Below are positions 649-9,635 of a stretch of 64,000 bases of DNA, piece after piece. Each line of letters opens with the position of its first letter. The first letter of the stretch is position 1. The stretch spans positions 32,001 to 96,000 of the forward strand of contig CAVXWP010000009.1 of NCBI GenBank assembly GCA_963765495.1. Direction: 5' to 3'. The position numbers and the translations under genes were made by a program. Under the pieces are notes generated by a model that saw nothing but the letters and a program-made list of their open reading frames with translations, made no database searches and had not been told where the DNA came from. Source of the stretch: Blastocatellia bacterium. Its GTDB lineage: Bacteria > Acidobacteriota > Blastocatellia > UBA7656.

Positions 649-792
649 CAGCAATTCTCGGTTTAGAAATTCTGTCTTAACAAGAAGTGAACCACTAAAT
701 ACACGAAGCACACGAAATAGAAGAATTATTCGTGTATTTAGTGCGTTTCGTGGTATATCCCGGTGCGATTTCCTCTAAACCGAGAATTGCTG
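649..792. mobile_element. 144-bp MITE with 19-bp terminal inverted repeats and 9-bp target duplication
   Basis: CAGCAATTCTCGGTTTAGA (649-667) / TCTAAACCGAGAATTGCTG (774-792); GCCTTCTAA duplicated at 640-648 and 793-801; internal imperfect palindrome ~691-754. Confidence 0.85.
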
Positions 793-826: not shown

Positions 827-1326
<500 letters not shown>

Positions 1327-1983: not shown

Positions 1984-2846
1984 TATTTGAGTTTGTCAGA
2001 GCAAATCAGGCAGAACATTCTATCTCAGCGATCTGTCGAGTCCTTGATGTCTCAAGATCAGGCTACTATGCCTGGCTCGCACGAAGCCCATCAAGGCGAC
2101 ACCTTGAGGATGTGGCCCTGAGTCAACGCATCACAGAAATTCATCAGATTTCAAGAGGCACATATGGGTCACCCCGGATACTGGAGGAACTAAAGGCTTG
2201 CGGCAAAGGATTAGGGAGAAAGCGTGTGGCTCGCTTGATGCAAGTGTGTGGGCTGGTTGGAGTAAGCCGTAGACCGTTTACAACAACAACTCAAAGAGAG
2301 AGATCAAAACGACCAGCCCCTGATCTGGTGAAAAGAGCGTTCAAGGCCGATTGTGCCAACAAACTCTGGGTGGCGGATATAACCTATATCGCGACCTGGG
2401 AAGGATTCCTATATTTGGCTGTAGTGATGGATGTATGGAGTCGAAAGATCGTAGGATGGTCAATGAAAAGGCATCTTAGAACTGAGTTGGTCCTTGAGGC
2501 GCTCGATAGTGCAGTAGCACAAAGAATGCCTCTAAAAGGAGTGATACATCACTCGGATCAAGGGAGTCAGTACACATCTCTAGGGTTTGGGAAGAGATGT
2601 CGAGAATTTGGAGTACGCCCCTCAATGGGAAGTGTGGGAGAAGGCTCGGACAATGCGATGTGCGAGAGTTTTTTCGCGACACTCGAATGCGAGTTACTGA
2701 ATCGAGAGAGATTCAAAACCGTAGAGGAGGCCAAAATGAAAGTCTTCGAATATATCGAAGGATGGTACAATACAAGGAGGAGGCATTCAGGGATAGAGTA
2801 CAAATCACCGATGGAGTATGAAAGGCTTCATCAAATGATTGCCTGA
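1980..2846 (+). CDS. IS3-family transposase OrfB (DDE integrase core)
   Basis: WVADITYI, HHSDQGSQY, DNAMCESFFATLECE motifs. Confidence 0.92.
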   Translation: MIFEFVRANQAEHSISAICRVLDVSRSGYYAWLARSPSRRHLEDVALSQRITEIHQISRGTYGSPRILEELKACGKGLGRKRVARLMQVCGLVGVSRRPFTTTTQRERSKRPAPDLVKRAFKADCANKLWVADITYIATWEGFLYLAVVMDVWSRKIVGWSMKRHLRTELVLEALDSAVAQRMPLKGVIHHSDQGSQYTSLGFGKRCREFGVRPSMGSVGEGSDNAMCESFFATLECELLNRERFKTVEEAKMKVFEYIEGWYNTRRRHSGIEYKSPMEYERLHQMIA

Positions 2847-2887
2847 TAGCCAAGTCACAAACTGTCCACCAAACCGGGGCAGGCCCA

Positions 2888-3692
2888 GGCCCCGATGCAG
2901 GATGAAAACGGGCAGATGGTGGAGCGAACTAGAGGAACTCCGCAGGGGGAGTAGTCAGCCCGCTGCTTGCGAATCTGTTCCTACACTACGCGTTTGATGT
3001 CTGGGTAAGTCGCAACCTGCCGACTGTGCCGTTCTGCCGCTACGCCGATGATGGACTGCTGCACTGCAAGACTCGGAGGCAGGCGGAGTATGTCATAAAA
3101 GTCGTGGGGAGAAGGTTTCAAGAGTGTGGGTTAGAACTGCACCCTGAGAAATCGAAGATCGTATACTGCAAAGACATCAACCGCAGAGGCGACTATGACA
3201 ATATCTCGTTTGACTTTCTCGGCTATACATTTCGGCCACGCTCATCAAAGGACAAATATGGGCGACGGTACGTCAACTTCTCGCCAGCCGTGAGCAATTC
3301 GGCAAAGAAAGCGATGCGGCAGGAAATAAGAGGCTGGCACCTACAGCTGAAGAACGACAAGAGGCTGGAGGATCTGTCGAGGATGTTTGATCCGATATTG
3401 AGAGGGTGGGCGAGCTATTACGGCAAGTTCTACAAAAGCGGCATGAGGGGGATTTGGAATCACTTTGATATGTATCTCACACGATGGGTAATGCGCAAAT
3501 ACAAGAGGCTGGCCGGGCATCGGCGGAGGGCAAGCAAGGAGTTAGGCCGAATCGCGCGGGATAAGCCGAATCTGTTTGTACATTGGCGGCAAAGGGAAAT
3601 GCGAGCGGTTGGATGATGGAGCCGAATGAGGGGAGACCTTCACGTTCGGTTCTGAGAGGGGCCAGGGGAGAGACTCCCCTGGTCTACTCACC
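2888..3692 (+). mobile_element. 5'-truncated group II intron (RT/maturase C-terminal part plus domains V and VI)
   Basis: GTPQGG(frameshift)VVSPLLANLFLHYAFD...RYADD...FDFLGY and maturase domain to stop at 3616; D5 GAGCCGAATGAGGGGAGACCTTCACGTTCGGTTC and D6 hairpin GGCCAGGGGAG-AGA-CTCCCCTGGTC ending at ~3692. Confidence 0.9.
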
Positions 3693-4132
3693 CCTACATT
3701 CGGTTGCTAGCCAACTGGATGTATCTGGTGGCGATTATCGATTGGCATTCGCGTTATGTCGTGAGTTGGGAACTCGATGACAGCCTGGAAGTGGATTTCG
3801 TCCTCTTGGCCGTCGAGCGGGCCTTGCGCCAAGCGAAGCCGGAAATCTTTAACTCCGATCAAGGGAGCCAGTTCACGAGCCAGGCGTACATCTCGCTGGT
3901 CGAAGGAGCCGGGGTGCGAATCAGTATGGACTCGAAAGGGCGAGCCTTTGACAACATCTTCACCGAGAGATTATGGCGAACCGTCAAATATGAAGACGTC
4001 TATATAAAAGGTTACACGTCGCCGCGCGAAACGCGGGTTGGAATAGGCAGCTATCTGGAGTTCTATAATGACAGGCGCGTGCATCAAGCCTTGGCTTATC
4101 GAACGCCAGCCGAAATCCACTTCGGGCTTTGA
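3693..4132 (+). pseudogene. IS3-family OrfB 3' fragment (host exon of the group II intron)
   Basis: (T)YIRLLANWMYLVAIIDWHSRY...NSDQGSQF...DNIFTERLWRTVKYE; begins right after the intron 3' end. Confidence 0.88.
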
Positions 4133-4159
4133 ATTGAACAAGAACCATGTTTATAGCCG

Positions 4160-4208
4160 ACTCAAATGAATCGTTGGCACGCGGGTCCGCTGTATCCCCC
4201 TGTTAGGC
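4160..4208 (-). other. Partial attC site (R''/L'' half)
   Basis: GCGGGTCCGCTGTATCCCCCTGTTAGGC resembles the same arm of the attCs at 4580, 9860 and 15633; other arm lost. Confidence 0.65.
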
Positions 4209-4579
4209 GGCTCTCTCTTTCTTCTTCTTCTCTTTGGCTCAGTTTTATCTTCCACTTCTACCTCCGCCTTCCCCTACTCTCTCTTACTCGCCCCTGCCAA
4301 GCCCTCTTGTTTGTCTTCTTTATCTCTTCCAGGCAACTCTTCTCTGCTTCATTGCTGAACATCAATTTGCAGTGTGACGCTGCCCAGAGACTCAGCCTAG
4401 TTGAATGATCTGGTTTGGTGAAGCGAAAGGTTGATGAGCAAGAGTGTGGCTAATCAAGACGAATCGAGGCGAGATCAAGCATTGATAAGCGAGCAGATTC
4501 TTTGTCCCCGCAGTCTCTTTGCTGTCAGGTCTTTGAACGATTGTTTGCTGAGTCGTTTCCATTTCACCGATACCCTGAC

Positions 4580-4664
4580 GCCTAACGACGAATTCAGCGG
4601 CGCGCCGGTAGCTGATGGAACATGAAAACGTGGTATGCGCGTCCGCTGGAATGAGCAGTTAGGC
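4580..4664 (-). other. Integron attC site (intact, 85 bp)
   Basis: GCCTAAC-GACGAAT-TCAGCGG...CCGCTGGA-ATGAGCA-GTTAGGC: RYYYAAC/GTTRRRY cores with paired L boxes and bulged bases. Confidence 0.92.
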
Positions 4665-4672
4665 TGCTTGCT

Positions 4673-5711
4673 GGCTTTGTTGCGTAAATATGGCAACAGG
4701 TGCGCGAGGGTTTGTATAATCTCTTTATGACCAAGAAAAACAAACCCACTTATCGCACCCGTAACTGGAAACAGTATAACTCCTCTCTTCGTAATCGTGG
4801 TAGTCTAACAGTCTGGCTCTCTCAAGATGTCCTTGATCAGTGGCTACACCGCTCTCCTCAAACACGCCCCGGCGCTCCATTGAGATATTCTGACACTGCT
4901 ATCATAACAATGCTCTCGATCAAGGCCGTCTTCCATCTGCCGCTTCGCCAGACTCAAGGATTCGTCTGCTCATTATTCAAGCTGATGGGAGTAGAGTTGC
5001 CCGTTGCAGATTACAGTAGAGTATCAAGGCGAGCCCCAGGGCTAGAGATAAGGTTGAGGCGCGATACAAGCAAGCCAATAGCGGACCTTGTAATAGACTC
5101 AACAGGAGTTAAGATTTACGGAGAAGGGGAGTGGAAAGTTCGCACACACGGGAAGGATAAACGACGAGAATGGAGGAAGTTACACATAGCAGTAGATACA
5201 GAGACGTGGGAGATAACAGCCGTAGAGTTGACCGACAAGGGAGTTGTTGACCCGCGAGTAATGCCTCGATTGATAGAGGAAACGGAAGGGGAAGTAGGTC
5301 GGATATATGGGGATGGAGCATATGATACAAACCAGTGTCACAAGGCGATCTATAAGAAGGGAGCGAAGCCATTGATCCCGCCGCGAAAGGGAGCAGTCGA
5401 GAGCAAGTATTATTATATGGGGGAAAGAAACCTGGCGATAAGAGAGAAGGCAGAGAAAGGAGAGAAGGAGTGGAAGAAAGAGAGTGGGTATCACAAGAGG
5501 AGCTTGGTAGAGACACAGATGGGCAGGCTGAAGGGGATATTAGGAGAGCGAATGAGCAGTAGGAAGATGGAGACACAAATAACGGAGGCAAGGATCAAGT
5601 GCATGGTGATGAATCGGATGAGCGAGTTAGGGATGCCCGACACAGTAGCATTCTAAAAGAGGTCGAAGTCTGGGTGAAGTCTATCTTCATCTCGAATTGC
5701 GCAACAAAGCC
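4673..5711 (+). mobile_element. IS5-family (IS903 group) insertion sequence
   Basis: Ends GGCTTTGTTGCG / CGCAACAAAGCC; CTTGCT repeated on both flanks (4667-4672, 5712-5717). Confidence 0.9.
4727..5656 (+). CDS. IS5-family transposase
   Basis: YRTRNWKQYNSSLRNRGSLTVW, IDSTGVKIYGEGEW, DGAYD, GYHKRSLVET motifs. Confidence 0.93.
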   Translation: MTKKNKPTYRTRNWKQYNSSLRNRGSLTVWLSQDVLDQWLHRSPQTRPGAPLRYSDTAIITMLSIKAVFHLPLRQTQGFVCSLFKLMGVELPVADYSRVSRRAPGLEIRLRRDTSKPIADLVIDSTGVKIYGEGEWKVRTHGKDKRREWRKLHIAVDTETWEITAVELTDKGVVDPRVMPRLIEETEGEVGRIYGDGAYDTNQCHKAIYKKGAKPLIPPRKGAVESKYYYMGERNLAIREKAEKGEKEWKKESGYHKRSLVETQMGRLKGILGERMSSRKMETQITEARIKCMVMNRMSELGMPDTVAF

Positions 5712-5736
5712 CTTGCTCCGGTGTATTGTCGAATTG

Positions 5737-6108
5737 CTAACGACTATTGGATCTTAGCAATATGGTCACATCTTTTCCGGTTGGAATTGATCTGTCATCC
5801 AGGTGCTCTATCTCCTCTAGAAAATCACAGATTTCATTGAATACCGCTATTGGAAGCAAACCTGTTTTCTTCAATTCCGTTTTATAGCTTTGAACACTGT
5901 GCATCAAGACTTCTAACAAGAATTTTGCCGGGAATTGAATCTGTAATGATCTCGAGGGATCAAGAAACTCATGATAAACAGTTTGCCAGTGTACGGTAGC
6001 TTCTTTAAAGAAAGCTTGCTCATTAATTCCAACCCCAAACTCATGGATTACTCTATTTCTATATATTCTGTAAAGTAAAGCATCGAAAGAAAAATCCTTC
6101 AGTAACAC
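5737..6108 (-). pseudogene. 5'-truncated hypothetical cassette protein
   Basis: AT-rich open frame that extends upstream only to the collapsed attC at 6137; no recognisable motif; ends next to attC 4580-4664 once IS5 is removed. Confidence 0.45.
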
Positions 6109-6136
6109 AGAGAAACTTTCTATGGCTTCTAAGAGC

Positions 6137-6160
6137 TCCTAACAAAATGAGCAGTTAGGC
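6137..6160 (-). other. Internally deleted attC remnant
   Basis: TCCTAAC-AAAATGAGCA-GTTAGGC; AATGAGCAGTTAGGCTG is identical to the end of attC 4580-4664. Confidence 0.65.
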
Positions 6161-6195
6161 TGGTTCTTGTTGGCATACTTTCTTCGCAACAACAA

Positions 6196-6537
6196 TTAGC
6201 CTCCGGGCCGATTTATGCGAACGAGTTCTTTGGCAATATCTGCAATTAACCCGAGAGCCGAATCTATTCGCTTGGCCTGACCTTCAAAATCGGGATCAAA
6301 TGTGCAAACAATAATTCCTGCATGTTCTTGCTGTTCCTTGTGCAACCGTATGAAGTGTTTCCGATTTATGGTTAGAATTGCGCGCCTATCTTGAGAGGCC
6401 AACTCAAGGACGGCATCATCTGGAAAGGACTGGTTTGCTTTGCCTGCCTCGTAAATCGTCAGGACATCATGCCCAAGCTGGCGAAGTTCGATTACAACTG
6501 GGAGTGGGAAATTTTCATCAGCAAGCAAACGAGCCAT
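6196..6537 (-). CDS. DUF5615 (PIN-like, VapC45-type) toxin
   Basis: RLLADENFP...LRQLGHDV...DDAVL...ILTINRKHF...HAGII. Confidence 0.88.
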   Translation of the reverse strand: MARLLADENFPLPVVIELRQLGHDVLTIYEAGKANQSFPDDAVLELASQDRRAILTINRKHFIRLHKEQQEHAGIIVCTFDPDFEGQAKRIDSALGLIADIAKELVRINRPGG

Positions 6538-6540
6538 TGT

Positions 6541-6870
6541 TCAAGCTGCCTCATTTTCATGAATTTGTTGCTCAATCTCATTCCTATGCGAGCGAACAAA
6601 TGCCCATGCATTAGCAATATCTACTGCTCGCAACGAAGGATAGATTCGTAGCAATTCGGCTTCGCTTGTACCGAGGCGTCGGGCTTGCTCAAGAACCCAG
6701 ACAGGAATCCTTGTTCGGACAATACAGGGTTCACCGCCGCAAACATCAGGATTGCTCTCGATGCCAGGAAAAGCATCGCCAAGGTCACGCACAACCCATT
6801 GAAGAAGTTGAGCTTTTTCAGCCCGTGAAAGGTCAGAAATAATTTTTTCCATTTCTTCCAGTGTATCCAT
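6541..6870 (-). CDS. DUF433-domain antitoxin
   Basis: NPDVCGGEPCIVRTRIPVW...ELLRIYPSL...DIANAW; immediately upstream of the DUF5615 gene. Confidence 0.9.
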   Translation of the reverse strand: MDTLEEMEKIISDLSRAEKAQLLQWVVRDLGDAFPGIESNPDVCGGEPCIVRTRIPVWVLEQARRLGTSEAELLRIYPSLRAVDIANAWAFVRSHRNEIEQQIHENEAA

Positions 6871-6963
6871 TGATGAATACCTCGCGTTGTCTCTAGTTTC
6901 AACAAAACAAATGATTCCATAAATGAGGCGATTAGAGCAACAGGTTACGCTTGCCATGAGCCT

Positions 6964-7272
6964 GCTCTGAAAATAAAAGGGGTGCTAAATGTTGATAACG
7001 AGTAGATGAAGACAAACAACTCCGAGCCTGTGCGATATTACTTCTGCACAGCTTCATCAAACTGGTTGTCGGTAGGGCATTGGTTAATAAGCATGAGTCT
7101 GCTCTACGTGCTCAAAGGCAACAATTCGGGGTACCAGAAATATGCCCAGGTCAAACTGCTATACAGGCTCGAAGCACCAAGGACCGTTCGACCTTCATAC
7201 CGACATACAAAATTCTATCATGGCTCTCACACATTTTCATCATTCGAAGGTGAGCCGCAGGCTCATGATGAA
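6964..7272 (-). mobile_element. Non-autonomous IS110 derivative carrying a putative bridge RNA, copy 1 (309 bp)
   Basis: Near-identical to 13515-13823 and 13826-14133; bounded by CT (AG on minus) at 6962-6963 and 7273-7274; homologous to the non-coding end of the adjacent IS110; no transposase. Confidence 0.85.
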
Positions 7273-7300
7273 CTGCTATGAAAATAAGAGTAGGTGTTGA

Positions 7301-9635
7301 TCAGGCAGCTTGCTCGACCTCTTCAACAGTTACTCTCAAGCCCGTCCCCTCAAGCTGTCGGATTAATCTTCGCCGCTGCTTCTCTACATTCCTTTTGTCC
7401 AGATAATCTACTCCCAACTCTTTGTAACCGGCTCTCTCTTCTAAGACGTGATATACAATCACAAGTATCGAATGTGCTATTGCTACCAGCGCCTTCTTCT
7501 TCCCCATTCTCTTGACCAGCCTTTTGTACTTCGCTGCAAGGAAACAATCCTTCTGATGCTTGCTGCCCAGGCTGCCTGCACAAGGGCTGCTTTTAGATAG
7601 CTATTGCCCTTTTGGGTTCTTCCACTCTTTCGTTTTCCTGCCGATTGATTATTACTGGGACAGATCGAAGCCCAACTTGAGAGATTCTTGTCTGTTGGGA
7701 AGCAGCTCATATCTACTCCAATCTCAGAGACAATGATCTGGGCTAAGGTCTTTGCGACTCCTGGAATAGAATCGAGAAGCTCAACAGCTTGCTTAACAAA
7801 AGGGTCTGGGGAAGTTTCGACCTCCTGGCTGATCTTCTCTTCAACCCTCTTAATAGAGGATTCAACCGAGTCATACTGATCGAGGAGTTCTTTAAGAATC
7901 CAGCGTTGGGCAGAAGTGAGGCGACCGTGCAAAGCACGCTTCAAGTCAGCCTTCTTACGCTTCATCCTCCGACGAGCAAGGTCGCTGATCTTGTCAGCAT
8001 CGGTTTGACCATCAGCCAAAGCTCTCAGCATCAGCCTGCCGCTAACCCCCAAAGCATCACTAGCGACTTGAGCGAGCTTGATATTGGCGCTTTCAATCAA
8101 CTTCTGAATGCGATTGGCAAGAGCAGTCTGCTCACGGATAAGGCTCTGGCGGTAGCGAGTCAAATCCCTGAGTTCACGGATATGAGGAGGAGGGATAAAG
8201 CTGGGACGAAGCAGACCGTGACGAAGCAGGTCAGCAAGCCACTCACAATCCTTAACATCAGTCTTTCTGCCAGGAACAGCTTTGACGTGGCGGGCATTAA
8301 CCAAAATAACCTCCAGGGAGGATTCGAGGATATTGAAAACAGGCTTCCAGTAAACGCCAGTACTTTCAATAGCGACGTGAGTGCAGCCTTGAGAAGTGAG
8401 CCAGTCGAGCAATAATAGAATTAGATAGTTTTTTGTTTGTTGTGTTGGTGTTTTTTTTTTGTTTTTTTGTGTGTTGGTGTGTTTGGTTTTTTTTGAAGTT
8501 GATATTTAGTTGTTGTTGTTTTATGGATAGGAGTAGAATATAGATGATTTTATGTTTAGATGGATGTTTATGATATATGTTGTGTGTAAAAAAATATTGG
8601 TTGATTTTTTATGTTGAGTGAGTAGGATTGATTTAAGTAAGGATTGTGAGATGTGTTGGTAGTAGGTTGAGTTATTTGATATTAGTGAGTAAGTTTTTAT
8701 TATAAGTTGTTTTAGTTATAGTGAGGAGATGTTATAAGTATGGATTGATGATATTATATAAAGTTATTATTTTACGTTTTGTGGTGTATTAGTGTTTGTT
8801 TAGTGGGAGTATTATGAAGTTTGTTGATATTTTGTGATGTTATATGTGTGAAGGGAATAAAAGTGATATATTTGGTTTTAATTTGAGTTGTTGTGATTTA
8901 GTGTATGTTTATATTGTATTTGTTGTGAGGTTTGTTTATTATGATTGTAAATTAAGTTTGGGGTATTGATATACTTATATCTGATTTGTGGTGTGTGGAT
9001 GTATTGGTAGTATTGTTGGATTGTTATTAGTGTTATATATTGAGTTGGGAATTGGATTAGAGTTTGGAGTATTTTTTCGTGATGGTAGTATTAGAATAGG
9101 TGTTTGTTAAAGTTTGTTTAGGAATTTGGAACTCTGATTAGGGGAGTTACTTCACTAGTTTGTAATATATATATCGACTGAAAATGGTTGGGTTGTAAAT
9201 CAGTATGGATGGTAAAGGTTGTGTTTTGGATAACATCTTTACGTAGTGTTTATGGAGAAGTATCAAGTATGAAGAGGTCTATCTGTATTCTTATGTTTCA
9301 CGAAGAGAAGCTCGACAAAACATTACTAGGTATATGTGATTCTATAATGAAGAGCGTCTACATCAGTCACTCGATTACTGGACACCGGTTGAAGTCGTAT
9401 TTCAGTTGTGAGAATGAGAAACATCAGCGAAACGATTCTATAATGAAAGGAGAAAAGTCCACTTTAGGCATAGGTAATTTTTTGTCTTGATTTTGTGGAC
9501 CACCTTAAGGGCAAGCAAATCATCAGTCATGGTCGAGAAAGTGCGAACCTCTTTGTTGCCGTCAGTGATGAGGCAGGCGACAACGGTGCGAGCGTGAACA
9601 TCAATACCACAGCAAGAGTTGTAAAGAATCTGCAT
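7301..9635 (-). pseudogene. IS110-family DEDD recombinase, split by an insertion (8413-9507) and a frameshift near 7550
   Basis: MQILYNSCCGIDVH...TDDLL / LDWL...VAIESTGVYWKP...GRKTDVKD...CPSNNQSAGK / KKALVAIAHSIL; RBS AAAGGAG upstream. Confidence 0.9.
8413..9507 (+). mobile_element. Degraded IS3-family element with near-complete C-to-T conversion on the + strand
   Basis: Only 4 C in 8411-9131. The 3' part translates ISMDGKG(C)(V)LDNIFT*(C)LWRSIKYEEVYL...FYNEERLHQSLDY(W)TP(V)EV, i.e. OrfB with CGN>TGN and GCT>GTT changes. Poly-A frameshift site at ~8588; right end TGTCTTGATTTTGTGGACCACCTTA. Confidence 0.85.

Follow-up and report, generated by a model that had tools for sequence, protein, structure and literature searches.

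The locus examined here raises the question of whether a bacterial transposon can lose nearly all of the cytosines of one strand, in the manner of an edited retroviral or fungal element, or whether the assembled letters are wrong. The window, by which we mean the whole stretch of 64,000 nt analysed from one contig of a Blastocatellia bacterium, contains an IS110-family element interrupted by a block whose first 721 nt (8411 to 9131) consist of 353 T, 190 G, 174 A, and only 4 C. A preliminary description made from the sequence had pointed out this nearly C-free stretch, the restriction of the C loss to the insertion, with a normal flank right up to 8410, and the gradual return of C to the right. 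All three observations were confirmed by counting: the flanking segments 7690 to 8410 and 9508 to 10228 hold 180 C per 721 nt each, and 50 of the 54 C in the complete block of 1097 nt lie at 9132 or beyond. The GC skew reaches +0.85 to +1.0 over 8400 to 9000. With C making up 0.2685 of all bases in the genome, a stretch of 721 nt would contain 4 or fewer C with a binomial probability of 2.5e-90. The C-free stretch is truly present in the assembled sequence. What remained to be decided was which of two readings offered at the time accounts for it, a RIP- or APOBEC-like deamination of one strand or an artefact.

A probable IS3-family insertion in an IS110-family element

The features of the locus are listed below; X1 is a public soil metagenome run, and C2 is another contig of the same assembly.

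7273 to 8410, minus strand: 3' part of the host IS110-family element, encoding the C-terminal part of the transposase (99.9% identity to four other copies; DEDD_Tnp_IS110 and Transposase_20; NF033542, 239 bits)
8411 to 9507, plus strand: IS3-family insertion as rendered in the assembly, 1097 nt (limits from uninterrupted IS110 copies; alignment to an IS3 copy on C2)
8411 to 8475, plus strand: T/G-rich junk in place of about 208 nt of the IS3 left end, that is, the left inverted repeat and the start of orfA (alignment no better than that of shuffled sequence)
8476 to 9279, plus strand: end of orfA, presumed A-run frameshift site (8588 to 8594), and most of orfB, with probable T-ward miscalls (843 columns against C2:553739-554578)
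9280 to 9507, plus strand: right part of the IS3 element, with the end of orfB and the right inverted repeat at about 9478 to 9507, partly affected (X1 contig; inverted-repeat comparison with the C2 copy)
9508 to 9867, minus strand: 5' part of the host IS110-family element, encoding the N terminus of the transposase (joined to 8410 in uninterrupted copies; one X1 contig links 8410 to 9508)

Three of the four other IS110 copies (C9:20809-22383, C2:21274-22847, and one on C16) are uninterrupted at this site. Because they read straight across it (...GTCGAGC/AGGGCAAGC...), the extra block is exactly 8411 to 9507, give or take one ambiguous A. The IS110 copy in the window lacks one G after 7559 that is present in all four other copies and in an X1 contig. 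IS3-family elements generate a short target-site duplication of 3 to 5 bp. None was visible at the junctions GAGC/A...TTA/AGGGC, where the left junction lies inside the junk, so that a duplicate could have been lost. A second IS110-family gene in the window is split by an in-frame TAG at 12149; this position and 13513 had been mentioned as possible isolated changes of the same polarity, and the genome holds no second copy of the stretches around either of them.

The identification of the block as an IS3 element held up. Window 8476 to 9279 aligned with C2:553739-554578 at 73% identity as plain DNA and at 92% when C and T were merged, and the copy to which this segment belongs (C2:553588-554578) scored 216 bits with NF033516, against a cut-off of 160. 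The same reference copy matched the profiles HTH_Tnp_1 (49.9 bits), HTH_21 (57.7 bits), and rve (73 bits) and has the layout of an OrfA with HTH_Tnp_1 followed by an OrfB with HTH_21 and rve. The window copy is tied to the family through its DNA alignment to the C2 copy: unlike a regular IS3 element, it has no surviving reading frame of its own, and the ORF that is left at 9188 to 9487 matched no Pfam family. Its proposed membership in the same subgroup as window 3693 to 4132 stands only loosely, with 72% identity over 483 nt in a three-letter alphabet. The window copy does retain other marks of the family. An A9 run in the orfA/orfB overlap of the C2 copy, which we take to be the programmed -1 frameshift site between the two genes, is rendered as A7 at 8588 to 8594, and the right repeat at 9478 to 9507, once reverse-complemented, is similar to the C2 copy's left repeat, with the common core GGTCCAC. 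Judged by these alignments, the underlying sequence is that of an unexceptional IS3-family element, probably lodged inside an IS110-family one.

The left end of the element is badly degraded. Counted from the left repeat at C2:553533, an element of about 1276 nt is expected, and its first 208 nt have shrunk to 65 nt in the window (8411 to 8475), with about 140 nt missing. A global alignment of these 65 nt to the IS3 left end, tolerant of T-ward changes, scored 98, compared with 95.9 +/- 4.5 for shuffled sequences. Only the first 20 nt of the block have some likeness to the left inverted repeat of the C2 copy, with a score of 25.5 that was matched by 0.33% of 3000 random genome segments. At its other end, the C2 copy is cut at C2:554578/9 by nested group II introns (RVT_N/RVT_1/GIIM/HNH), in which one reverse-transcriptase gene is itself split by the second intron. 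The sequence that follows the introns (C2:559394-559580) was considered as a reference for 9280 to 9507 and rejected, since it belongs to a different IS3 lineage and is about 72% identical; the right part of the window copy thus has no reference within the genome. Among 41 genomes, no near copy of window 9137 to 9507 was found: two matched, including the window's own, and the other showed 74% identity over 87 nt.

Nearly all changes run toward T

Alignment to another copy in the genome, which had been proposed as a check, gave the spectrum of changes directly. With C2:553739-554578 as the reference, 190 of the 191 substitutions in the 843 alignment columns end in T (164 C>T, 20 G>T, and 6 A>T), and the remaining one is C>A. 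The 208 C of the reference were converted to T in 164 cases, deleted in 26, kept in 17, and changed to A in 1, so that about 92% (190/208) were changed or lost. Substitution by T also affected 20 of 234 G and 6 of 220 A, and all 175 aligned T were unchanged. There were no A/G transitions and no T>C changes in the 843 columns. Since, T-ward changes aside, there is essentially no divergence from the C2 copy, the template must have been otherwise identical to it. The claim of a strand-specific C-to-T conversion is therefore right in that the changes are mostly C>T and lie on one strand, but they are not specific to C, because 26 of the 191 substitutions begin at G or A. More than half of the G>T changes (12/20) lie within CGG or CAG.

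The indels in the alignment comprise 39 deletions and 3 insertions. Among the 26 C lost in this way, 24 adjoin T or another C, which equals the contraction of T runs after conversion. Counted in 100-nt bins from 8411, deletions number 2 (in a bin with only 32 aligned columns), 14, 5, 8, 6, 4, 0, 0, and 0, and kept C number 0, 0, 0, 1, 0, 2, 1, 8, and 5. The errors thus increase leftward until they end in the 65 nt of unalignable T/G junk, and the rise of indels toward the left that had been noticed by eye is borne out by a climb from 0 to 14 deletions per 100 nt. The indels are not a mere by-product of conversion density, since at 9011 to 9110 deletions are already at zero yet 22 of 24 C are converted. 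Over 8411 to 9110 as a whole, 166 reference C gave 135 converted, 26 deleted, and 4 kept, and with only 4 of 166 kept, no context preference can be read from them.

An unconverted right end in an independent read set

Logan contigs of three public runs (X1, X2, and X3) served as independent read sets. Rare variants are dropped from such contigs, so they demonstrate the presence of a sequence and not its absence, and X1 may differ from the data set behind the assembly. X1 contains 0.68 of the sampled words of window 7000 to 11000, a stretch of which the insert makes up 27%, and its contigs reproduce the flanks of the insertion almost perfectly: 0 letters and 1 gap differ over 7000 to 8410, 1 letter over 9508 to 9869, and 0 over 9944 to 11000. 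X2 and X3 contain 0.08 and 0.00 of the words, and only short, unlike pieces from other elements were found in them. The stretch 8474 to 9143 is covered by no contig of any of the three runs, a result that weighs little because of the loss of rare variants. The edited allele was accordingly not seen in independent molecules, and what X1 does hold of the element is an unedited right end.

This right end is represented by an X1 contig of 194 nt with a depth of 5.4, which covers 9251 to 9443 with 10 differences and one gap. At 9286, 9327, 9337, 9359, 9379, 9389, and 9400, the contig reads C against T in the window, so the normal C that had been sought in other sequence data was indeed present at seven window T positions; further differences are a G>C at position 9302, an A>G at position 9306, and the loss of one letter at 9397. 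The window itself has 28 C in 9280 to 9443, so about one in five C positions in this segment remains converted, in continuation of the gradient. A contig of this kind could stem from a second copy that was left unassembled or from a different strain present in the soil. In X1, the depth per assembled copy is 4.6 for IS4 (27.4/6) and 3.6 for IS110 (17.9/5), and compared with these values, a depth of 5.4 places the unconverted right end at about one copy. No other copy of the unconverted right end exists in the assembly. On the simplest interpretation, the locus in fact carries the unconverted sequence.

Another X1 contig joins 8410 directly to 9508. Its depth is that of all five IS110 copies, and it carries the G that is absent from the window copy; it probably comes from the other IS110 copies and, if so, is no argument against the insertion. 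Scans of metagenome contigs, one with the IS3/IS110 right junction and one with the IS3 3' end, allowing Y at possibly converted positions, returned 0 matches and are uninformative either way. Because the block has an exact right end, a start that resembles the left repeat, and an unconverted right end at single-copy depth in X1, the insertion of an IS3 element into this IS110 copy is probably real.

Other aberrant tracts and the search for deaminase genes

The tract does not stand alone on its contig. A pure run of 497 A (A497) is found at window 828 to 1324, 7.1 kb upstream, and points to signal or assembly trouble. Only five homopolymers of at least 15 nt exist in the 7.3-Mb genome, and the other four lie within an A/G-rich tract on C2. 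The genome scan for comparable tracts that had been suggested was carried out at two stringencies: 150-nt windows with 3 or fewer of any one base gave 9 rows at 5 loci, and a looser scan for base-poor sequence gave 31 loci, 3 of which measured at least 600 nt, namely, the C-free tract, the poly-A tract of the window, and the A/G-rich kilobase on C2. The last of these (C2:165601-166600) was not counted as a supporting artefact, as no template for it was found, and it may simply be low-complexity sequence of natural origin between genes, ahead of one that encodes a Q-rich secreted protein. Insertion sequences and short repeats are densely interspersed in the contig region around the insertion, so the mapping of reads is ambiguous here.

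Seven deaminase families were searched in the genome, which is 97.9% complete, with control genomes alongside. DddA-like, Toxin-deaminase, APOBEC_N, DYW_deaminase, YwqJ-deaminase, and XOO_2897-deam gave 0 matches each; the blanks for DddA-like, Toxin-deaminase, and DYW_deaminase carry little weight, as these three families were also blank in the control genomes. MafB19-deam had 2 matches in the genome, which are of a housekeeping type, and this family also matches 12 of 14 control genomes. The search for DNA deaminase genes that had been advised thus revealed none of the dedicated toxin type among the seven families, a result that covers the genome itself, since an enzyme from another organism would escape it.

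Origin of the C-free tract

We consider it very probable that the tract is a sequencing and assembly artefact, left unpolished over an IS3 insertion that is itself probably real. The artefact reading of the preliminary description, which it had held to be at least as likely as the other, is supported by changes of every base toward T, the contraction of T runs, the junk, and the unconverted right end in X1. In the proposed course of events, an ordinary IS3-family element of about 1.28 kb would have been inserted in the IS110 copy, and the printed letters would not be the organism's sequence but would come from one or very few faulty long reads, perhaps from a single read of a nanopore-like platform. 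Such a read would drift toward T, with nearly every C, some G, and a few A called as T and the resulting T runs then shortened, and the drift would worsen leftward until it ended in pure T/G junk. A draft that lies about 27% off the true sequence would presumably have kept correct reads from aligning, so that polishing left the tract untouched, whereas the repeated IS110 flanks would have been polished cleanly.

Several features of the tract are those of uncorrected nanopore errors in a low-coverage, repeat-rich metagenome assembly. In a published error analysis (PMC8486125), nanopore errors are biased to A/T, homopolymers are usually undercalled and occasionally grossly overcalled, and CGG and CAG are named as error-prone words in high-GC bacteria; the T-ward bias, the shortened runs, and the G>T changes in CGG and CAG correspond to this account, as does the grossly overlong A497 nearby. 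As with other uncorrected long-read errors, an independent read set offered nothing in favour of the tract. A loss of about 92% of one base over 700 nt is, however, unlike the nanopore errors described, and no account of long reads in which C is miscalled as T almost throughout a stretch of one strand was found in the literature searched, as far as the accessible parts of those sources extend. A nanopore signal simply shifted up by one level was rejected as a full account, because it would strike A before G, but G>T (20/234) exceeds A>T (6/220). As an IS3 element, the tract matches the C2 copy in every column except for the T-ward changes, the one C>A, and the indels.

The resemblance to enzymatic editing is limited. 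Like the footprints of APOBEC3 on retroviral cDNA, of fungal RIP, and of the bacterial enzymes DddA and SsdA, the changes affect one strand, are overwhelmingly C>T, and are limited to a mobile element. Unlike those footprints, which are defined by change restricted to C, they include G>T and A>T substitutions, deletions, and junk. They also show no sequence-context preference, whereas DddA is reported to favour 5'-TC (PMC10442228). An enzyme of the SsdA type would be compatible with this lack of preference, as SsdA is reported to be a context-independent bacterial single-stranded DNA deaminase (PMC12494967). The tract further differs from known deaminase systems in that it is without support in the public runs and the genome yielded no such toxin gene in the families searched. 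The RIP- or APOBEC-like reading of the preliminary description is not supported: it leaves unexplained the substitutions that start from G or A, the leftward rise of the indels, and the junk, and no dedicated DNA-deaminase toxin gene turned up among the seven families. The loss of about 92% of C is, to our knowledge, above the levels usually reported for APOBEC or RIP editing.

It would nonetheless be possible to imagine a real event in a soil acidobacterium, in which a context-independent cytosine deaminase acting on single-stranded DNA converted the sense strand of the IS3 element almost completely, at a time when transposition or the repair of the insertion had left it single-stranded. The assembly would then have captured a fixed allele or one molecule, with G>T changes and deletions arising as reading errors caused by uracil; we regard such an event as very unlikely. 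In its heritable form, the bacterial counterpart of RIP or APOBEC, the deaminated strand would have been fixed by replication. The limitation of the tract to the inserted element, with flanks that are normal to 8410 and from 9508, a conversion that falls smoothly from about 100% to about 20% across roughly 400 nt, and the lack of any ordinary divergence from the C2 copy, as after a recent event, would all agree with this. A fixed allele is nevertheless extremely improbable in the face of 26 T-ward substitutions from G or A, 39 deletions, and a junk end, together with a nearly complete and context-free loss of C and an X1 run that holds the unconverted version at about one-copy depth and no converted words. 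Damage that was chemically real but never inherited fares somewhat better, although it too is unlikely: nearly all cytosines of a single DNA strand would have turned to uracil in the cell, in storage, or during extraction, and the strand would have been read once, with the uracils causing miscalls and deletions in their neighbourhood. That C is affected far more than any other base (190 of 208 changed or lost), that 12 of 20 G>T lie in CGG or CAG and hence near a converted C, and that a context-independent enzyme such as SsdA exists are all in keeping with damage of this kind. However, deletions drop from 14 to 0 per 100 nt while conversion holds steady at 96 to 100%, so that indels do not track uracil density, and at the left end about 140 nt are missing and the rest is junk that does not align. 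The nearby A497 suggests trouble with signal or assembly instead, and the genome offered no DNA-deaminase toxin family among those searched, its 2 MafB19-deam matches belonging to a family found in nearly all of the controls.

The site might also contain no IS3 element, in which case the 1097-nt block would be a chimeric or foreign read segment spliced by the assembler into an intact IS110 copy. The invisible target-site duplication, the X1 contig that links 8410 to 9508, and the metagenome contigs that lack a match to the right junction or the IS3 3' end would fit such a splice. However, the joining contig has the depth of five IS110 copies and contains the G missing here, so it may derive from the other copies, and a left target duplicate would fall within the junk. 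Moreover, the right inverted repeat of IS3 coincides exactly with the end of the block, which opens with a degraded 20-mer that resembles the left repeat, and X1 contains an unconverted right end that can be placed nowhere else in the assembly. A splice into an intact element is therefore highly doubtful. The artefact over an inserted IS3 element remains the reading that we prefer.

If the tract were real, it would be the first case in which RIP- or APOBEC-like silencing of a transposon has been observed in bacteria. Read as an artefact, the tract is a warning that one bad long read in a thinly covered, repeat-rich metagenome assembly can mimic the strand-specific footprint of a deaminase, including its smooth gradient and its confinement to a mobile element. 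Three tests separate such an artefact from deamination, namely, whether bases other than C change toward the same letter, whether indels take the form of homopolymer contraction that grades into junk, and whether an unconverted version is present in an independent read set.

Other anomalous tracts

Between positions 828 and 1324, the window consists of 497 consecutive A residues uninterrupted by any other base, with a copy of a 144-nt dispersed repeat on one side of the run and an attC-like repeat on the other. No other homopolymer longer than 18 nt was found anywhere in the 7.3-Mb genome, and the A497 run is almost certainly another sequencing or assembly artefact. The neighboring 144-nt repeat (window 649-792) has 20 more copies with 95 to 99% identity, distributed over seven contigs, and it looks like a MITE.

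On C2, a second contig of the same genome, we observed a kilobase (C2:165601-166600) that is rich in A and G and poor in T (576 A, 264 G, 110 C, and 50 T). It includes four runs of A15 to A18, all three plus-strand frames contain stops, and a gene for a Q-rich secreted protein lies downstream. This tract may be either natural or junk.

Transposase genes and the reference IS3 copy

The IS110 copy in the window lacks one G at 7559/7560, where ATGCGTTGC appears as ATGCTTGC, and this loss causes a frameshift in the transposase gene. The G is present in all four other IS110 copies and in a contig from X1, a public soil metagenome run; its absence is either a genuine mutation or an additional assembly error. 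A second transposase gene (window 11519-12766), single copy and with N-terminal motifs that are IS110-like as judged by eye alone, is interrupted by an in-frame TAG at 12149-12151. The preliminary description had suggested a possible CAG>TAG change at this site; the genome has no other copy of the gene from which the original codon could be read.

Within the reference IS3 copy sits a group II intron, beginning with GTGCG, that breaks the element in two:

L001 (a stretch of C2) 2579-7390, corresponding to G000:C2:554579-559390: group II intron insertion in the reference IS3 copy

The reverse transcriptase gene of this intron is itself interrupted by a second group II intron, and the sequence beyond both introns comes from another IS3 lineage, with about 72% identity.

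A possible integron

An 83- to 88-nt repeat family, with members about 80% identical, includes one copy at window 9858-9942 and occurs at dozens of sites across the first 50 kb of the contig carrying the window (C9:1-50 kb) and at both ends of C2. The repeats begin with GCCTAAC, end with GTTAGGC, and fold into an imperfect hairpin. We take these termini to match integron attC core sites. On this reading, the region would be the cassette array of a chromosomal integron, full of insertion sequences, with the IS110 element next to an attC-like site.
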